Notes: generated from the sequence alone by a model not told the origin. Positions 18,550-61,007 are shown, counted from the first letter of the stretch. The stretch: 64,000 nt of DNA from Parcubacteria group bacterium Gr01-1014_13 (GCA_007376295.1 VMGB01000001.1:182643-246642); one strand, 5' to 3'. Made by a program: numbers and translations.

Positions 18550-19926
<1,377 letters not shown>

Positions 19927-19969
19927 AAACCCACCAAAGTCTGGTAGGCAAAGTAGGGAACATGGACTG

Positions 19970-20272
19970 TTAATTTGAGCTGTTTTCTGAGTATGAATCT
20001 TCGAGCCGAACTGCCTTTACGTGAATAGTATGGTACACAATCTTTCGAGGAAGTGAGGGCATAATTTTACGAATAATTTTATATGCATCCTTATCGATAA
20101 TCTTTGTTTCCATCACCGTACGAATTTTTGCCTGGTCTAATTGAGAAAGAGCTAAAATTTTCTCGTTTAAACCGTTGCCTTTAATAGTCGTTCTAAAATC
20201 AATACTTTCGATAAATCTACCCTTTTTATCAAATGTATCAACACCAACAAGCCATACCTTGACTTCGGACAT
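19970..20272 (-). CDS. Hypothetical 100-aa protein on the opposite strand, between atpD and atpC. Start MSEVKVW chosen because it has a strong SD (AAAGGAGATAAAATG).
   Basis: Open frame with an AAGGAG Shine-Dalgarno. No recognisable family. It occupies a 387-bp gap that is normally less than 30 bp in atp operons. Confidence 0.5.
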   Translation of the reverse strand: MSEVKVWLVGVDTFDKKGRFIESIDFRTTIKGNGLNEKILALSQLDQAKIRTVMETKIIDKDAYKIIRKIMPSLPRKIVYHTIHVKAVRLEDSYSENSSN

Positions 20273-20313
20273 TTTATCTCCTTTGGGTAAAAAATTAACA
20301 CAAATAAGCATAT

Positions 20314-20742
20314 ATGTCAACACTTAAATTTAAAATCGTAACACCGGAAAAAGTAATTTACGAAAACGAAATTCTTCAAGTTACCATTCCTACTATGAGC
20401 GGTGAAATTACGATTCTTCCCAATCATATTCCTTTGGTTTCAGTGTTAAAAGCGGGGGAGATGAGAATAAAAGATAAAGACGGTGAACAGAATCTGGCAG
20501 TTTCCGGAGGATTTTTGGAAATACGCGGCAACAACGAAATTGTAATTCTGGCTGATCATGCCGAAAGAGCAATAGATATCGACACTGCTAAGGCTGAAGA
20601 AGCCAAGCAGAGAGCCGAAGAACAAATGAAAAATCTTAAAAACGTTCAGGATGTTGATTATGCCAGACTTCAAGCTGTTATTGATAGGGAACTCAACAAA
20701 ATAAAAATTGCTCGAAAATATAAAAACTTACCAAATAAATAA
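20314..20742 (+). CDS. atpC: F0F1 ATP synthase subunit epsilon
   Basis: LKFKIVTPEKVIYENEILQVTIPTMSGEITILPNHIPLVSVLKAGEMRI, the epsilon beta-sandwich plus C-terminal helices. Confidence 0.85.
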   Translation: MSTLKFKIVTPEKVIYENEILQVTIPTMSGEITILPNHIPLVSVLKAGEMRIKDKDGEQNLAVSGGFLEIRGNNEIVILADHAERAIDIDTAKAEEAKQRAEEQMKNLKNVQDVDYARLQAVIDRELNKIKIARKYKNLPNK

Positions 20743-20747
20743 AAAAG

Positions 20748-20776
20748 ATGGAGACCGTTCAACGGTCTCCATTTAG
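20748..20776. terminator. Bidirectional terminator. Serves atpC on + with a weak T-run and the minus-strand small gene with a good T-run.
   Basis: 10-bp stem atggagaccg/cggtctccat with loop ttcaa. A-run upstream and T-rich sequence downstream. Confidence 0.55.
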
Positions 20777-20791
20777 TTAAAGAACAGAAAT

Positions 20792-21088
20792 TTATTCTGG
20801 TTTGCGCTTTGCTAGCTTAGCGGCTTTTTTCCAAACAGATTTTTTGGTACCGTGATCATTTTCAGCGTAATCACTAACATCGTTCTTAACCGGGAAAACA
20901 CCGGGCCTATAGAGAACCACAGTCCAATGCTTAGGTTTGTGTCCATACTCTTTACGCGGTTCAAACACGCGCACTGTTGATGGATGGCTTATAGAAAGCC
21001 AATGTTCGGGAAGTTTTGACCATCTATATTTTTGCACCCAGACGAAGTGGACACCGTCTACTACTTTGGGATTTCTTCTTGTGGCCAT
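20792..21088 (-). CDS. Small hypothetical protein, paralogue 1 (HWLSISHP...VRVFEP family, unassigned)
   Basis: Shares VHFVWV...HWLSISHP..VRVFEP...LY(K/R)PGVF with the adjacent gene. The track start is a TTG; internal ATG (MATRR) taken instead. Confidence 0.5.
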   Translation of the reverse strand: MATRRNPKVVDGVHFVWVQKYRWSKLPEHWLSISHPSTVRVFEPRKEYGHKPKHWTVVLYRPGVFPVKNDVSDYAENDHGTKKSVWKKAAKLAKRKPE

Positions 21089-21096
21089 AACACCGC

Positions 21097-21405
21097 TCAA
21101 CTCACCGGACGCTTTGCCCAGTTAACGGCCTCTCGCCAAGCAATTCTTTCAGTGCCTAGGTACATTTCCGCATCATACTTGTCGTCGCTGCTAGGCGGAA
21201 TGAATACCCCGGGTTTATAAAGGATCGTCATCCACTCACCATCTTCTTTCGTAAGCGGATGTGGTTCAAACACACGGACTACTTGCGGATGACTAATAGA
21301 AAGCCAGTGCCCCCGAAGATTTGATCCTTCATACTGATCCACCCATACAAAGTGCACATCCAAAACGATTTTGGGTTTTCTCTCGTTATCATTTTTGTTT
21401 TGCAT
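21097..21405 (-). CDS. Small hypothetical protein, paralogue 2
   Basis: About 45% identical over the core to paralogue 1. GGAGG Shine-Dalgarno 5 nt upstream of ATG (MQNKNDNE...). Confidence 0.5.
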   Translation of the reverse strand: MQNKNDNERKPKIVLDVHFVWVDQYEGSNLRGHWLSISHPQVVRVFEPHPLTKEDGEWMTILYKPGVFIPPSSDDKYDAEMYLGTERIAWREAVNWAKRPVS

Positions 21406-21554
21406 GATATCCTCCATTCCTCAAGGGAATTTGTTGAGCGTAGTTAATCACAAAACAACTATGTCAGTCAACTTGACATTTTAAAAAATATATATTGCCT
21501 TCAATTTTTGGTTTTGATATAATCTTTGTAGTATTTATCTTCTAACCTCTACGT

Positions 21555-21683
21555 ATGGAAAAATGCAATAAATGTAGTATACCTTTTGAAGACCAAGTTG
21601 ATTTTTGTTTATGTAACGAAAGCCTCTGCGCACCCTGTTGCGAGTGCGACGATACTTGCGGCTGTCAATGCGGTGAAAAATAG
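21555..21683 (+). CDS. Cysteine-rich 42-aa peptide (11 Cys), not in the ORF track: MEKCNKCSIPFEDQVDFCLCNESLCAPCCECDDTCGCQCGEK
   Basis: Intact ATG..TAG frame. Own promoter-like TTGCCT-N17-TATAAT (21495-21523) and own terminator (21716-21738). No obvious Shine-Dalgarno. Confidence 0.4.
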   Translation: MEKCNKCSIPFEDQVDFCLCNESLCAPCCECDDTCGCQCGEK

Positions 21684-21715
21684 TTGAAAAACAGATGGGC
21701 ATAGATTATACTACG

Positions 21716-21738
21716 AACAGCCAAATAGGCTGTTTTTC
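21716..21738 (+). terminator. Rho-independent terminator after the Cys-rich peptide
   Basis: Stem aacagcc/ggctgtt with loop aaata, followed by TTTT. Confidence 0.5.
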
Positions 21739-21786
21739 AGTCGTAATTTTGTAGAAAACAAGTTATTTTAAATTTTATTATATAAT

Positions 21787-22944
21787 ATGATTAAAAAAAT
21801 AAAAATTAAAAAATCACATAAAACTATTCAAAAAGATTTTGAATTAGATTTAGAAAAAACAACAGTTATTACTGGGAAAAATAACTCTGGGAAAACAAAC
21901 TTTATTCAAGCGGTAAATGCTAAAAAAGACGTGGAATTTACTAATGCAGAGTTCTTGGATGAAAAAGATAAATTAATAATTCCAATTACTATTTATATAG
22001 CTGCAGAAAATATAAACCCTTCTGATAATGAATCAAACTCTTCGGCTAAAAAAAGTAGTTTGATACAAAATTTAGCAGAATTATTTTCTAATTTAGGAAT
22101 TAAATTTATTCTTGAAGAACAACCTAAAATTATTCAGGAAATAAAAACTTTAATAGATAAGGCGGATGAAAATTTAAAGGAATTCAGCGGAAAAAATGAT
22201 CATGGTATTAAAATAAAATTTAATGAAGGAGAATTGGACCCCGCTACCATAGCACAAGCCTTAATTAAAAAAATTATTGGAGACGAAAACGGAGAGGAGG
22301 TAGATCTAGACGATTTAGGACAAGGCACTCAAAGAATAATTGTTGCTTCAATTTTGAAAGCGTATGTGGATATTTTGATCGAAAGAAACAAACATTCTCA
22401 AGAACCAATACTAATTCTTTTTGAAGAACCCGAAATTTATTTACACCCTGAATTGAAAAGGACTCTTAACATAACATTAAAAAAGATAGCTGAGCAAGAT
22501 AATCATCAGGTTATAATTACGACCCACGATCCATACTTTGCTTATACTAATTTAAATGGTGAAAATAGCGTTGTTTACTCTTTTTTAAAAACTGCAGAGT
22601 ACACAGAAAAAACAGAGCCAGGTATTATATTTGGAATTGAAGATGAATTACTTCATATTCATCTTTTTGAAAAAATGATACAAATATTAAAGAAAAGTGG
22701 GAAGGTTAAATCTTTTATATTAGACCCTGGTAAAGAATTAGACATCTATATAAAGGGTTATTGCGGAAAAGAATTAAGAGCAAATACATGGTATAAAGAA
22801 AAAAAAGGCATAGAAGATAAGCTTTCTCTACCTTTACATATCAGGCATTTAATCCACCATCCTGGAGGTAAAGATAAATTCACTGATATTGATTTAGAAA
22901 AATCAATAGAAATATTAAATTTAATTCTAAGCAAAGCATCTTAA
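21787..22944 (+). CDS. AAA/ABC-type ATPase of the OLD/AAA_15-AAA_21 family (385 aa)
   Basis: Walker A VITGKNNSGKTNFIQAV, ABC-like signature region DLGQGTQR, and Walker B/D-loop ILILFEEPEIYLHPELKRTL...VIITTHDP. The C-terminal 130 aa has no obvious match; it may be a degenerate Toprim-like region (GIEDE...LDPGKELD). Confidence 0.8.
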   Translation: MIKKIKIKKSHKTIQKDFELDLEKTTVITGKNNSGKTNFIQAVNAKKDVEFTNAEFLDEKDKLIIPITIYIAAENINPSDNESNSSAKKSSLIQNLAELFSNLGIKFILEEQPKIIQEIKTLIDKADENLKEFSGKNDHGIKIKFNEGELDPATIAQALIKKIIGDENGEEVDLDDLGQGTQRIIVASILKAYVDILIERNKHSQEPILILFEEPEIYLHPELKRTLNITLKKIAEQDNHQVIITTHDPYFAYTNLNGENSVVYSFLKTAEYTEKTEPGIIFGIEDELLHIHLFEKMIQILKKSGKVKSFILDPGKELDIYIKGYCGKELRANTWYKEKKGIEDKLSLPLHIRHLIHHPGGKDKFTDIDLEKSIEILNLILSKAS

Positions 22945-22970
22945 TGATGATCTAATTTTTTGTATTAAAT

Positions 22971-24476
22971 ATGGATTTTATTAGTAAAACAACTTATTTA
23001 GAGTATTTATCTTGCGGTAAAAATGCCTGGCTTAGATGTTATAAACCGGAATTAAAATCATTATTTAAATTATCTGATTTTGATAAAAGCCTAGTAGATA
23101 AAGGAAACTTAGTGGAAGATTGGGCGCGCAAACTTTTTCCAGACGGCGTTTTAATTACCGAATCAGACGAAGAAGCTTTACGAATTACCAAACAGCATAT
23201 CGCAGATAAAACACACGTTATTTTTCAATCAAAATTCATTCATGACAAATTTTTGGCAAAAAACGACGTGCTTGAGTATGATAAATTTAATGATTGTTGG
23301 AATTTATACGAAATTAAAGGCACTAATACTTTAGACGAAAATGTAAAAGAAATAGATCATATAGAAGATGCCACTTTTCAAACTATTATTCTAAAAGCCG
23401 TAGGAATTAAAGTTGGTAAAGTATTCATTATCCACCTAAACAAAGAATACGTCAGAGAAGAAGAAATAAACGTGGAGGAGCTTTTTATTAAGGATGACAT
23501 AACTGAGGAAGTTAAAAATAGGGAAGAAAATACAAAAGAAAAAATGCAAAAAGCAGCCGAATGTTTATTTCAACAAAATGAACAAGCTTTGGTCTGTCAA
23601 TGTGTCTATTCAGGCCGAAGCGCGCACTGTGCAACATTTAATTACTCCTATCCCAACATTCCAGAATACTCGGTTCATGATTTATCTAGAATAGGGAATA
23701 GTAAAAAAAAGTTAGAATCTTTGGTTGATTCACAAATTTTTGATATAAATGAAATTCCTGAAGATTTTGAATTAACACCCAATCAGCAAAATCAAGTTTA
23801 TGTACACAAAACTCAAAAACCAATAGTAGATTTAGTGGCTATAAAAAAAGAGCTTAAATCGCTTGCATATCCTCTGTATTTTTTGGATTATGAAACATAC
23901 CCGCCGGCCATACCTTTGTTTAAGGGTTTTAAGCCATACCAACAAATACCATTTCAATTTTCTTTACATATAATAGATGATGAAGATAGCGAACCGATCC
24001 ACTTGGAATATTTGCACGAAAATGCTACGGATCCATCTTTGTCTATTATACTCAAATTAAAAGAAATGATTGGTCCAAATGGCAATATAATTACCTGGAA
24101 TAAAAGATTTGAAAAAGGAATAAATACACAATTAGCTGAAAGAAACCCGGAATATGCAGATTTTATTGAAGATATAAATAGTAGAATTTATGATTTAATG
24201 GAAATATTCCAAAAACAATTTTATGTTCATCCTGGTTTTAAAGGAAAAGTTTCCATAAAAAAAGTTTTACCTATTTTAGTTCCTAAATTAAGCTATAAAG
24301 AACTAGAAATAAAAGAGGGCGGATCTGCTATGGAAGCATGGTACGAGATGGTATTTGGATCTGGCTCACAAGCAGATAAAAATAAAATAGCTGACGACCT
24401 GCGAAAATATTGCGGTTTAGATACTTATGCAATGTATGCAATTTGGAAAGAATTAATGAAAATTGTATGGCAATGA
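22971..24476 (+). CDS. Cas4/RecB-like PD-(D/E)xK Fe-S nuclease N-domain fused to a DUF2779 domain (predicted RNaseH-like exonuclease)
   Basis: N-terminal Cys-containing region (LSCGKNAWLRCY), D...EIK motif (NDVLEYD...YEIKG), Cys cluster CQCVYSGRSAHC, and DUF2779 core YFLDYETYPPAIPLFKGFKPYQQIPFQFSLH. Confidence 0.65.
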   Translation: MDFISKTTYLEYLSCGKNAWLRCYKPELKSLFKLSDFDKSLVDKGNLVEDWARKLFPDGVLITESDEEALRITKQHIADKTHVIFQSKFIHDKFLAKNDVLEYDKFNDCWNLYEIKGTNTLDENVKEIDHIEDATFQTIILKAVGIKVGKVFIIHLNKEYVREEEINVEELFIKDDITEEVKNREENTKEKMQKAAECLFQQNEQALVCQCVYSGRSAHCATFNYSYPNIPEYSVHDLSRIGNSKKKLESLVDSQIFDINEIPEDFELTPNQQNQVYVHKTQKPIVDLVAIKKELKSLAYPLYFLDYETYPPAIPLFKGFKPYQQIPFQFSLHIIDDEDSEPIHLEYLHENATDPSLSIILKLKEMIGPNGNIITWNKRFEKGINTQLAERNPEYADFIEDINSRIYDLMEIFQKQFYVHPGFKGKVSIKKVLPILVPKLSYKELEIKEGGSAMEAWYEMVFGSGSQADKNKIADDLRKYCGLDTYAMYAIWKELMKIVWQ

Positions 24477-24763
24477 AATCACTTGGAGAAATTTTAAAAA
24501 GACAAATGAAGCAAACGGCGGGTTGGAAGCATGTTGAGGCTTCTATAGTCGTAGAGAAAACAAATGAGGTTTTGCAAGAATTTTTTGGGGTGGAATCAAA
24601 GAGATTTGCCCAAGCTGTGTACTTCAAAGACCGAACAATTAGCATTACCTGCTTAAGTTCTGTGATGGCGCAGGAGATAAGGTTAAATGAAAAAAAACTA
24701 ATTCCGGCCATAAACAATAAGCTTGGTGGCCAGACCGTAGAAAAAATCAGGTACTTAGCCTAA
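24473..24763 (+). CDS. DUF721 (DciA-like) small protein, ATGA-overlapped with the upstream nuclease gene
   Basis: C-terminal pattern ISITCLSSVMAQEIRLNEKKLIPAINNKLGG..VEKIRY resembles the DUF721/DciA motif. Start overlaps the stop of the preceding gene. Confidence 0.5.
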   Translation: MKSLGEILKRQMKQTAGWKHVEASIVVEKTNEVLQEFFGVESKRFAQAVYFKDRTISITCLSSVMAQEIRLNEKKLIPAINNKLGGQTVEKIRYLA

Positions 24764-24813
24764 AAATAACTATTGCCAAACTCTCTAAACAGAGCTAAAA
24801 TTAAGTTACTATT

Positions 24814-25206
24814 ATGACTCTTCGCCAATACCTCGTTTTAATGTCTGTAGGAGCGGCCATCTGCTGGATGGCCTGGGTTTTTGTTTTAGGAAGCACAGAC
24901 CCCGCAGAAGCTGGATTTTTTGGTTTTCTATTTTTTTATTGCAGCCTATTTTTGGCTTTGGCCGGCACTTTTTCTGTTATCGGGTTTCTTATTAAAAAAA
25001 TTATTTTAAAAAATGATCAAATTGTTTTTCATCACGTAAAAAGTACTGTCAGACAAGGCATGTTGGTAGCCGTATTTATCATTGTGGGTTTAATTTTATT
25101 ACAAATTAAATTACTTACCTGGTGGAATGGAATTTTGTTAATTCTGCTATTTGCGGTAGTCGAAGGAATTATTTTCACAAATAGAAAGTACAACAATTAT
25201 GTTTGA
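24814..25206 (+). CDS. Hypothetical membrane protein (4 TM)
   Basis: 130 aa with four hydrophobic helices. Overlaps mreB start by 8 nt. Confidence 0.45.
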   Translation: MTLRQYLVLMSVGAAICWMAWVFVLGSTDPAEAGFFGFLFFYCSLFLALAGTFSVIGFLIKKIILKNDQIVFHHVKSTVRQGMLVAVFIIVGLILLQIKLLTWWNGILLILLFAVVEGIIFTNRKYNNYV

Positions 25207-26251
25207 AAATCTGTTGGGGAAATTAAGAAAGGACATCGGTATTGATTTAGGAACTGCCAACACCTTAGTGTACGTTAAAGGCAGAGGGATAATCATAAAC
25301 GAATCAAGTGTGGTGGCTGTAAATACCAAAACAGAACAAATTTTGGCTGTAGGCAATGAAGCCAAAGAAATGTTAGGTAAAACACCGCCGCACATTGTTA
25401 CCACCCGTCCGCTCATAAACGGTATTATTTCTGACTTTGAAGTAACCGAAAAAATGCTTAAATACTTTATTGATAAAGTATACGAAGATAGCATGAATTT
25501 TATGACCCGCCCAAGAGTGGTGGTGGGAGCGCCGCTGGAAATTACCGAAGTTGAATTAAAAGCCATCAATGACGCAGCGATTAACGCCGGCGCCAGAGAA
25601 GTGATTGTAGTTCAAGAACCGATGGCTGCCGCTATTGGCGCCCGAATGCCTATTCGAGAGCCAGTAGGAAATTTCATCGTAGAAATTGGCGGCGGTACGG
25701 CAGAAATTGCCGTTATTTCTTTGGGCGGTATAGTTACTTGGCGCTCTATTCCGGTTGCTGGAGATGAGTTAAATAGAAATATTATCCAATACGCCCGAGA
25801 TAAATTCAATTTATTACTGGGTGAAAAACAAGCTGAGGAAATAAAAATTAAAATCGGATCAGCTATAGAGTTAAAGGAGTCTATGCACTTTCCCATGCGC
25901 GGCCGCGATCTTGTTTCCGGTTTGCCAAAAGAAATAATGATCGATGATTCTCAGGTCAGAGAGGCAATTACCAAATCATTACGAACCATTATCGAAAATA
26001 TAAAAGGCACGCTAGAAATTACGCCACCCGAATTAGTGGCTGATATTCACGAGAGGGGAATCGTGCTTTCTGGTGGGGGTGCGTTACTGCGAGGATTTAA
26101 TCAGCTAATTAGCCGGGCCATAGAAATTCCAGTGCGTATTGCCGACGATCCACTAACTTCAGTAGTCAGAGGCACCGGTTTACTTCTAGATGATCTGGAA
26201 TTACTGAATGAAATATCTATCAAGACCGACCAGAATAAAAGATCTTCTTAA
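25199..26251 (+). CDS. mreB: Rod-shape-determining protein MreB
   Basis: IGIDLGTANTLVYVKGRGII at the N-terminus and an actin-fold sequence throughout. Confidence 0.9.
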   Translation: MFENLLGKLRKDIGIDLGTANTLVYVKGRGIIINESSVVAVNTKTEQILAVGNEAKEMLGKTPPHIVTTRPLINGIISDFEVTEKMLKYFIDKVYEDSMNFMTRPRVVVGAPLEITEVELKAINDAAINAGAREVIVVQEPMAAAIGARMPIREPVGNFIVEIGGGTAEIAVISLGGIVTWRSIPVAGDELNRNIIQYARDKFNLLLGEKQAEEIKIKIGSAIELKESMHFPMRGRDLVSGLPKEIMIDDSQVREAITKSLRTIIENIKGTLEITPPELVADIHERGIVLSGGGALLRGFNQLISRAIEIPVRIADDPLTSVVRGTGLLLDDLELLNEISIKTDQNKRSS

Positions 26252-60146: not shown

Positions 60147-61007
60147 TTAAATTTTATCCACACCCCTATAAACTATCTTTTGGAAGAGATTTTTGGCATT
60201 TTTAGTCGTGGCTGCCGCAACTTCCTGTAAAGAAAGACCTTTTACTTCGGCAATTTTCTTAATCACTTCTTCTACCATCCATGGTTCACAGCGTTTGCCA
60301 CGGTACGGATTTGGAGCCAAATACGGAGCGTCGGTTTCTACAACTATGCGATCTAACGGGCAGTTTCGGACAACTTCCAGTAAAGACAGTTGTGTTTGAG
60401 GATCAGATTTTTTAGGCGGGAAAGTAATAACCCCGGTAAACCCAAGATTTAAACCCAAAGCCAAATACTTTTGAGCAAAGTGCCAATTACCTGTATAACA
60501 ATGCACAGTGCCACGAACTTTGTCTGTCAAACTTTTTAGCAGCTCAACCATTTCTTCGTGCGCTTCTCGCACATGAATCACCATTGCCAAACCTAATTCC
60601 TGCGCCAAATTATATTGAGCTGTAAAAGTCGTTTTTTGTTTTTCCAGTATTTCTTCTTTTGTTCTGCCTTCCGGTAATCTGTATAGATCCAATCCGCACT
60701 CGCCTATCGCCACCACCTTTGGGCTTTTGCCCAAATTCTTGTAATATTCGTAATCAAAATTTTCTTCTCGCGATAAAAATTTGCTTTCTTCTTCGTCTAC
60801 ATGCGTAGAAAATAAATGAATCGGGTGTAGCCCGATACTGGCATACATAAAAGGATGTTTCTCGGCAATTTCTACCGCGGCTCGGCTAGTATCTTTTTGT
60901 GTGCCGACAACGTTTAAGATAACACCTTTTTCTTGGCAGCGTTTAATCACATCGGCTTGGTCAGTTTTGTAGGCATTAAATTGTATATGACAATGCGTGT
61001 CTATCAT
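60147..61007 (-). CDS. tatD: TatD-family metal-dependent hydrolase (DNase)
   Basis: MIDTHCHIQFNAY N-terminus and TIM-barrel His/Glu/Asp motifs. Confidence 0.85.
   Translation of the reverse strand: MIDTHCHIQFNAYKTDQADVIKRCQEKGVILNVVGTQKDTSRAAVEIAEKHPFMYASIGLHPIHLFSTHVDEEESKFLSREENFDYEYYKNLGKSPKVVAIGECGLDLYRLPEGRTKEEILEKQKTTFTAQYNLAQELGLAMVIHVREAHEEMVELLKSLTDKVRGTVHCYTGNWHFAQKYLALGLNLGFTGVITFPPKKSDPQTQLSLLEVVRNCPLDRIVVETDAPYLAPNPYRGKRCEPWMVEEVIKKIAEVKGLSLQEVAAATTKNAKNLFQKIVYRGVDKI

Follow-up and report, generated by a model that had tools for sequence, protein, structure and literature searches.

Introduction

PrrC and RloC, in which an ATP-binding cassette (ABC) head is joined to a HEPN anticodon nuclease (ACNase), provide restriction–modification (R-M) systems with an RNase back-up. 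The study that gave the definition of the HEPN domain also linked fusions of ABC ATPases with HEPN domains to R-M and Fic/RhuM genes (Anantharaman et al. 2013, PMC3710099). The DUF2779 family has been described separately: PF11074 was assigned to the clade of 3'-5' exonucleases within the RNase H-like superfamily, fused to DUF83/PD-(D/E)xK (Majorek et al. 2014, PMC3985635), and MMSYN1_0389, a quasi-essential protein of JCVI-syn3.0, was reported in 2026 to consist of a Cas4-like N-terminal half and a DEDDh/MrfB-like C-terminal half, with an HHpred E-value of 2e-6 for the Cas4-like half of a family member (PMC13621843). In the present study we analysed a 64,000-nucleotide stretch of DNA (hereafter the window) from Parcubacteria group bacterium Gr01-1014_13 (GCA_007376295.1 VMGB01000001.1:182643-246642), a member of the candidate phyla radiation (CPR), in which a Cys-rich peptide, an ABC ATPase, a DUF2779 protein and DciA are encoded one after another between the atp operon and the mre genes. 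An earlier reading of this DNA (hereafter the original prediction) had treated the four genes as one candidate system. Our analysis favours, with a probability of about 0.6, a composite locus, in which a conserved Cys-peptide–DUF2779–DciA cluster has received a single inserted gene for a defence-type ABC ATPase with a HEPN-like tail.

The 385-residue window ATPase resembles PrrC, RloC and the ABC-ATPase–HEPN fusions (PMC3710099) in having an N-terminal ABC NTPase, a helical C-terminus of ~130 residues, the pattern Rx4-6H and a polar residue after the arginine; its family also frequently occurs within or next to R-M operons, in some cases together with Fic/RhuM genes (loci L174 and L172; loci compared in the present study carry the prefix L). 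However, its head is of the AAA_15/AAA_21 (OLD-like) type, outside the PrrC/RloC family, and the R-M partners of its family are of type II, IIG or III rather than type Ic, with none beside the window ATPase. The PrrC/RloC architecture of an ABC head and a HEPN ACNase would be matched if the HEPN reading holds. By sequence and fold the head is closest to OLD, GajA (Gabija) and AriA (PARIS), but the window ATPase differs from OLD in the lack of a Toprim domain and in its helical C-terminus, and from Gabija and PARIS in the lack of a GajB helicase (UvrD-type) and of an AriB/DUF4435 partner. It belongs to the same structural class of ABC ATPases as PtuA of the Septu and retron PtuA–PtuB systems (Foldseek 1e-7 to 1e-8), and in L174 and L090 the gene immediately upstream of the ATPase encodes an HNH protein, whereas the window has no HNH partner (PtuB) and PtuA has no Rx4H C-terminal domain. 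Membership of PARIS, Gabija or Septu was rejected, since the cognate partner genes are absent beside the ATPase, whose neighbours are the Cys-peptide and DUF2779 (PADLOC). The DUF2779 protein shares with UU173/MMSYN1_0389, family F.17 of the RNase H-like classification, the union of a putative Cas4/DUF83-like PD-(D/E)xK domain with a DEDD(h/y) exonuclease, the catalytic residues being kept in both. It differs in keeping four Cas4-type cysteine residues where the mycoplasma protein has two (PMC13621843), in being shorter (501 residues) and in being coupled, within its clade, to DciA and a Cys-rich micro-protein. The double-nuclease architecture itself is already published.

An ATPase gene within a conserved cluster

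An open reading frame (ORF) scan placed the 42-residue peptide with its 11 cysteine residues at 21555-21683, the 385-residue ATPase at 21787-22944, the 501-residue DUF2779 protein at 22971-24476 and DciA (DUF721; ~98 residues) at 24467/24473-24763, all on the plus strand and all where the original prediction had put them. The dciA gene overlaps the stop codon of the 501-residue ORF; the junction reads GTATGGCAATGA, and the second ATG of dciA creates an ATGA overlap. A 130-residue membrane protein (24814-25206, plus strand) joins the cluster to mreBCD-PBP2 in conserved synteny. The ATPase has 166 homologues, with the next-best identity at 64%, and for the DUF2779 protein more than 3,343 were found, many of them 60–84% identical. 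Judged by their sequences, the four genes are real rather than chance ORFs, and the domains assigned to them in the original prediction (an OLD/AAA_15-type ABC head, a putative Cas4-like half with a DUF2779 exonuclease half, and DciA) held in the Pfam searches and the conserved residues.

The region was compared with three sequence-distinct close relatives, represented by five contigs (L165, L167/L168 and L169/L170). Their common order is atpC, no or one small gene, the Cys-peptide in some, DUF2779, DciA, the 130-residue protein and mreBCD, and the ATPase gene is absent from all of them. In L165 (DUF2779 79% identical), atpA-G-D-C is followed by DUF2779 3 nt past the atpC stop codon and then by DciA, a 131-residue protein, mreB, mreC, mreD, PBP2 and greA; L167/L168 (84%) have atpC, one small minus-strand gene, DUF2779, DciA, the 130-residue protein and mreBCD; and L169/L170 (79%) have atpC, a 380-bp gap, DUF2779, DciA, a 134-residue protein and mreB. 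The DciA orthologues are 84–86% identical and overlap or almost abut DUF2779 in all three relatives, and the 130-residue protein (84–93% identical) occupies the same place in each. The breakpoints of blastn synteny coincide exactly with the atpC stop and the DUF2779 start. The divergence of DUF2779 matches that of the surrounding core genes, at 79% compared with 80% for atpG, 79% for MreC and 82% for PBP2. These comparisons indicate that Cys-peptide–DUF2779–DciA–130-residue protein–mreBCD-PBP2 is a vertically inherited cluster lying directly after the atp operon.

At the DNA level the window and L167 are homologous across the peptide gene and the hairpin that terminates it, and the match ends there. 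The window-specific insertion (~1.2 kb, ~21740-22970), which is absent from L165, L167/L168 and L169/L170, therefore consists of the ATPase gene only. This gene has the lowest GC content (0.282) and the lowest GC content at third codon positions (0.189) among the window genes measured, the long genes measured averaging 0.384 and 0.335 respectively. No direct or inverted repeats were found flanking the insertion. The DUF2779 gene is also GC-poor, by 5–10 GC points compared with its neighbours, in the window (22971-24476) and in every syntenic relative (L165 6974-8479; L167 1765-3264; L169 4911-6416). Recent horizontal transfer of DUF2779, suggested by the low GC content, was rejected, as the gene is equally GC-poor in the relatives, and its low GC content is thus a property of the gene.

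The Cys-peptide gene had been overlooked by gene callers and was recovered by tblastn upstream of DUF2779 in genomes that lack the ATPase, with identities of 93% in L167/L168 and 69% in L169/L170; it adjoins DUF2779 in two of the three close relatives. All 11 cysteine residues are kept in two other genomes, 13 synonymous and three non-synonymous codon differences separate the window from L167, and in L169 4 nt separate the peptide stop codon from the true ATG of DUF2779. No Pfam family matched the peptide and the database held just one homologue. A promoter-like site (TTGCCT-17-TATAAT, TG-extended; 21495-21523, plus strand; 10/12 matches in a consensus scan) precedes the gene, and a hairpin with a T-run (~21716-21738, plus strand; terminator scan) follows it and marks where the ATPase insertion begins on its left side. 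L167 has kept both, in agreement with the promoter and terminator that had been proposed for the peptide, although at the upstream site it is the stretch that is seen to be conserved and promoter function is presumed. Thus the Cys-peptide is part of the vertically inherited cluster and separate from the ATPase insertion. The gain here is a conserved 42-residue, 11-Cys micro-protein missed by gene callers.

The ATPase head and its predicted HEPN-like tail

Residues 1-254 of the ATPase (21787-22548, plus strand) form an ABC-type nucleotide-binding head of the AAA_15/AAA_21, OLD/PtuA/Rad50-like kind, as assigned with Pfam, PADLOC and Foldseek. The Pfam matches (AAA_15, 5e-27; AAA_21, 2e-19) span residues 1-253 only, and PADLOC matched the protein via generic head models only (AriA, 4e-30; Old, 2e-28; GajA, 3e-19). 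No PADLOC model matched any other protein of the locus, DUF2779 being covered by none, and no NCBIfam model scored above its cut-off for the locus proteins. Invariant residues were found in the Walker A motif (Gly30, Gly35 and Lys36), the signature (Gly180, Gln182 and Arg183), the Walker B motif (Glu214 and Glu216) and the H-loop (Thr246, His247 and Asp248). The full model had a pLDDT (predicted local distance difference test) score of 85, and its Foldseek matches, which fall on the head, were led by OLD (6p74, 1.8e-9), followed by retron PtuA/Eco8, Rad50, SMC, RecF and GajA; by sequence the match to PDB entry 6p74 was 7e-11. The RecF equivalog model of NCBIfam reached 20.3 bits against a cut-off of 172 (E 2.6e-4, residues 3-43 only), and the Pfam match to the SMC_N/RecF N-terminus was similarly weak (3.8e-4, residues 1-43 only). 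A RecF/RecN identity was rejected on this score, as the original prediction had anticipated for RecF. Its view of the ATPase as a defence-type protein was likewise borne out by the AriA, Old and GajA heads as best PADLOC matches and by the R-M neighbours of the family elsewhere, and on these grounds we consider the ATPase to be of the defence type.

The C-terminal part (residues 255-385; 22549-22944, plus strand) is a helical domain that, from its motifs and model, we predict to be a HEPN-like RNase. Folded alone, it gave a pLDDT of 86.7 and was helical, with two three-residue strands only. Conservation centres on G-I-E-D-E…L-H, in the first helix, and on I-R353-[H/D/N]-x-I-H-H358, which reads I-R353-H-L-I-H-H358 in the window ATPase. 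Arg353 is invariant, His358 is nearly so, and the residue after the arginine is histidine, aspartate or asparagine in all members. The strongest conservation falls on charged residues and histidines (Asp286, Glu287, a His292-type histidine, Arg353, His357/His358 and P-E-N), with a fixed spacing throughout the family. The HEPN sequence pattern, Rx4-6H with a polar residue (N/D/H) after the arginine, is thus present in the ATPase C-terminus (criteria of PMC3710099). A profile of the domain found 292 representative proteins, which share [YW]-I-R-[HN]-x-I-H-H-P-E-N, and in every one checked the domain is C-terminal to an AAA_15/AAA_21 head. The domain is probably a HEPN-like RNase, and is best described as lying outside the curated families, with a CPR and R-M association, and as a fresh variant of the ABC-HEPN proteins.

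The degenerate Toprim that had been suggested for this region (GIEDE...LDPGKELD) was not upheld. No match to the Pfam model OLD-like_TOPRIM was found in the ATPase at E≤1, whereas the true OLD protein of L059 scored 3.8e-19; 'LDPGKELD' sits in a variable, mostly gapped segment of the alignment and is not conserved; and the domain is helical, with an Rx4H motif. A Toprim domain was therefore rejected.

Genomic contexts of the ATPase family

The contexts of the ATPase were collected from 21 independent loci with close full-length relatives (29–64% identity), taken from genome and metagenome scans and exact-protein look-ups. In 11 of them R-M genes lie within two genes of the ATPase. The neighbours are a LexA-methylase and a GIY-YIG protein in L001; an integrase, a methylase and a type IIG enzyme in L002; a methylase and an EcoO109I restriction endonuclease (REase), followed by HEPN_AbiV, in L008; C5 methylases in L009 and L010; an Eco57I-type methylase and a Tsp45I REase in L011; two methylases and a BsaWI REase in L085; a Dam methylase in L086; type III mod/res in L092; a methylase in L093; and two methylases and an HNH protein in L174, where a RhuM/Fic gene is nearby. 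RhuM/Fic genes were thus seen near the ATPase in L174 and L172, and an integrase or recombinase in several loci. The ATPase stands alone among housekeeping genes in L184, as does the copy in the window. DUF2779 is directly downstream of the ATPase in three of the 21 loci (the window, L006 and L011) and not in the other 18. No homologues of the ATPase were found on plasmids.

A gene for a DUF2130 protein (~420-505 residues, with an N-terminal CxxC zinc-ribbon-like start) was found directly upstream of the ATPase in four of the 21 loci (L005 1-294; L006 5465-6979; L172 3729-4988; L173 3740-4993) and also beside a truncated ATPase copy in L007 (5459-6979), with gaps of 7–22 nt in these five loci. 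Searching the literature for DUF2130, and for HEPN in CPR defence, returned nothing relevant, and the recurrent DUF2130–ATPase pair was not met there. The truncated ATPase of L007 (7001-7582, 193 residues), which follows DUF2130, is 68% identical over residues 1-136 and suggests gene decay in one lineage. Directly after the ATPase of L173 (6162-8700) lie a Cas4-like PDDEXK_1 protein (~280 residues, 1+3 Cys) and a Pif1/RecD-like helicase. A Cas4-like PDDEXK_1 gene was also observed a few kilobases downstream of the ATPase in L008 (9831-10670) and in L009 (11444-13549), where it is paired with a P-loop/helicase-like gene; PDDEXK_1 and helicase may be a conserved end-processing pair of CPR bacteria.

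The DUF2779 protein and DciA

The N-terminal half of the DUF2779 protein (22971-23876, plus strand) is assigned as a putative Cas4/RecB-like PD-(D/E)xK nuclease with four cysteine residues, from its conserved residues and the published family assignment, and the C-terminal half (23877-24476, plus strand) as a predicted RNase H-like DEDDy 3'-5' exonuclease by Pfam (PF11074, 6e-41, residues 303-428). In an alignment of 33 homologues, the PD-(D/E)xK residues Asp99, Glu114 and Lys116 and the exonuclease residues Asp306, Glu308, Asp408, Tyr480 and Asp484 were invariant, and Cys15, Cys209, Cys211 and Cys220 were nearly invariant, the four-Cys motif being probably of the iron–sulphur type. When set against Cas4-like PDDEXK_1 proteins in hhalign, the DUF2779 protein aligned over the catalytic core only, with identical spacing, and the match fell short of significance (E 0.21). 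Neither a single-sequence search of the PDB nor a hidden Markov model (HMM) search of PDB sequences with the DUF2779 profile returned anything, and the NCBIfam model UU173 scored 65 bits against a cut-off of 225. DciA was recognized by Pfam over the full profile length (3.4e-10; 40.4 bits against a cut-off of 24).

Distant DUF2779 homologues show no linkage to DciA, to the peptide or to a window-type ATPase. In L171 (DUF2779 62% identical) a SNF2 helicase gene overlaps DUF2779 (ATGA), with a Type ISP R-M enzyme and a HEPN gene alongside; in L166 (67%) DUF2779 lies amid NERD, HD, GIY-YIG, methylase, recombinase and terminase genes; on two Caldilineaceae contigs a full OLD protein follows DUF2779; and in L059 a STAND-like NTPase (AAA_22/35) precedes DUF2779, with a strong hairpin between DUF2779 and the OLD gene. 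Thirty plasmids carry DUF2779, and no homologues were found in phage genomes. On plasmids, a same-strand NTPase or nuclease gene immediately precedes DUF2779 in L175-L178 and L180, and the genes found directly before it encode a NACHT-STAND protein (Aliarcobacter), a GHKL ATPase (HATPase_c_3) with a DEAD helicase (Planktothrix), an AAA+ protein (Rhodoferax), a PD-(D/E)XK protein (Arcobacter) and an SbcCD-like pair with a hypothetical gene (Selenomonas). PLD, WYL, macro-domain, NERD and R-M genes also occur near DUF2779 outside the window clade. DUF2779 therefore behaves as a core gene in the window clade and as an island gene elsewhere, and it is a widespread double nuclease that is quasi-essential in a minimal cell.

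Discussion

The comparison with near relatives corrects the tempting call of a new four-gene system, as it separates a mobile defence gene from the adjacent core genes. Three relatives keep the cluster without the ATPase, 18 of the 21 ATPase loci have no DUF2779 directly downstream, and distant DUF2779 genes occur without DciA, the peptide or the ATPase. In the composite locus that we favour, the DUF2779 protein would process DNA ends for host replication or repair in a reduced genome and would be co-expressed with the helicase-loader homologue DciA. The ATPase gene landed between the peptide terminator and the DUF2779 start, and DUF2779 and DciA are therefore probably transcribed by read-through from the ATPase gene. 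The R-M context of the ABC-ATPase–HEPN fusions matches that of the ATPase family, hence our proposal that the ATPase may be a PrrC/RloC-like latent RNase and a second line of defence beside R-M. By analogy with PrrC and RloC, the ABC head would keep the C-terminal RNase silent until an infection cue, which might be the loss or overload of the companion R-M system; the released RNase would then cut cellular RNA such as tRNA, and translation would stop. With such a protein, the use of an RNase to back up R-M, as in PrrC/RloC, would reach CPR bacteria and a further ATPase lineage, and the HEPN-like Rx4H on OLD-type ATPases offers a testable assignment, for ~290 representative proteins, of a domain without a curated family.

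Several results weigh against this reading. Pfam HEPN models, scanned against the C-terminal domain of each member, gave noise only, and the one member that matched HEPN_MAE_28990 did so at an E-value of 0.038, which leaves the HEPN assignment statistically unsecured. Nothing significant was returned by Foldseek for residues 255-385 against the PDB, and nothing by an HMM search of PDB sequences with the C-terminal profile. No PrrC/RloC or curated HEPN family was among the Pfam and NCBIfam matches of the window ATPase at E≤1, so that no sequence link to these proteins was seen; PrrC has ~400 residues, and its ATPase family, shared with RloC, is a different one, AAA_13. The window ATPase has no R-M neighbour. 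Distant DUF2779 homologues reside in defence or mobile contexts, and the housekeeping role rests on the synteny of one narrow clade. Finally, the ATPase precedes DUF2779 on the same strand and in the same order at 26 nt in the window, at 10 nt in L006 and with an ATGA overlap in L011, and adjacency in three of 21 loci is far above random placement and could mean a real partnership.

This last point also speaks for the proposal that the ATPase and DUF2779 form a two-gene defence module, in which the ATPase would sense infection or foreign DNA and license the nuclease, as in Gabija, PARIS, Septu or Lamassu, with DciA and the peptide as bystanders. By our own estimate, random placement in a genome of ~1,000 genes gives adjacency in only ~0.05–0.2% of cases per locus, well under 1%, and three of 21 is therefore not chance. 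The pair is on the same strand in L006, in L011 and in the window, where no terminator lies between the two genes, and these sequences are divergent; DUF2779 also lies 3.4 kb from the ATPase in L008, a full OLD gene stands beside DUF2779 on the two Caldilineaceae contigs, and other NTPases directly precede DUF2779 (SNF2 in L171; NACHT-STAND, GHKL and AAA+ on plasmids, in three phyla). The ATPase–nuclease pairing of the original prediction thus has a basis in the conserved order and strand in three divergent lineages and in the NTPase genes before DUF2779 across phyla, but it is missing from 18 of 21 loci, where R-M genes and DUF2130 are the commonest neighbours, and its wider form with DUF721 does not extend to distant DUF2779 genes, which lack DciA. 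The orthologues of the window DUF2779 do without the ATPase in the three nearest relatives. Identities to the window proteins are incongruent (ATPase, 55% in L006 and 36% in L011; DUF2779, 39% and 45% respectively), so the two genes were not passed down together. The NTPases partnered with DUF2779 are mutually non-homologous, which fits co-residence in islands equally well, a strong hairpin parts DUF2779 from the OLD gene in L059, and no PADLOC model covers DUF2779. The excess of adjacency fits either functional pairing or shared residence in or beside variable islands; the majority contexts, the ATPase-less nearest relatives, the incongruent divergence and the non-homologous partners favour the latter, whereas the unvarying order and strand and the translational coupling in L011 favour the former, and we regard pairing, and with it the two-gene module, as unlikely. 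It is also doubtful, in our view, that DUF2779 is a shared effector recruited by varied NTPase sensors (ABC-ATPase/HEPN-like, OLD, SNF2, NACHT-STAND, GHKL and AAA+); if true, it would define an unnamed cross-phylum class of two-gene defence systems, the window DUF2779 would have acquired such a sensor, and the Cys-rich micro-protein could be a further metal-binding subunit or a regulator of the nuclease.

The tail of the ATPase may alternatively be a regulatory, dimerisation or partner-binding helical domain, which would make the protein an effector-less ABC sensor acting via neighbouring nucleases. No significant HEPN profile or structure match was obtained, and nucleases often flank the ATPase (REases in L008, L011 and L085; HNH in L174 and L090; GIY-YIG in L001; PDDEXK_1 in L173; HEPN_AbiV in L008; DUF2779 in three loci). 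However, charged and histidine residues conserved at fixed spacing are more typical of an active site than of an interface, the pattern fits all three published HEPN sequence criteria (PMC3710099), and the gene also occurs alone among housekeeping genes (L184 and the window), and for this reason we give a non-nuclease tail only a small share of the probability. Far less probable is a housekeeping replication or repair operon of all four genes, with an ATPase akin to RecF/RecN, a nuclease that processes ends and DciA as the helicase loader. The overlap of DciA with the DUF2779 stop, the quasi-essential status of DUF2779 in JCVI-syn3.0 and the weak SMC_N/RecF matches confined to residues 1-43 (Pfam 3.8e-4; NCBIfam recf 2.6e-4) speak for it. 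But the three closest relatives have no copy of the ATPase, which has 166 homologues compared with the more than 3,343 of DUF2779 and reaches 20 bits with the recf model, whose cut-off is 172, and its usual neighbours are R-M, integrase and Fic/RhuM genes, so that this reading is already largely refuted for the ATPase. The original prediction had named a conserved housekeeping operon at the same syntenic position as its own possible undoing. This applies in part: the DUF2779–DciA part is kept there in three relatives, which lack the ATPase.

Other features of the window

Two tandem paralogous small genes, at 20792-21100 and 21097-21417, encode proteins of 102 and 106 residues. They had been described as duplicated genes preceding a same-strand cassette; they are indeed paralogues (47% identical) but lie on the minus strand. 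Both share the motif VHFVWV…HWLSISHP…VRVFEP, and neither belongs to a Pfam, NCBIfam or PADLOC family. L167/L168 have one orthologue (78% identical) at the same position, and L165 and L169 have none; the presence of the small genes thus differs among the relatives, and the junction between atpC and DUF2779 is therefore a variable spot. After atpC, a perfect hairpin with a 12-bp stem (20748-20772) is bordered by T-runs on both sides and resembles a bidirectional terminator common to atpC and the convergent small gene. No Rfam families were found in 19500-25500 and no tRNA in the whole window.

The spacer between atpD and atpC (19905-20325) is ~420 bases longer than in L165, where the gap is 57 nt. 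This extra segment, an insertion within the atp operon, holds a 117-residue ORF (19970-20323, minus strand) that matches no family and lacks homologues in all the loci fetched. A TatD-like gene lies immediately before the atp operon in L165 (1-237), and its window copy (60183-60419) is ~40 kb off and inverted, a displacement that reflects a rearrangement between close relatives.

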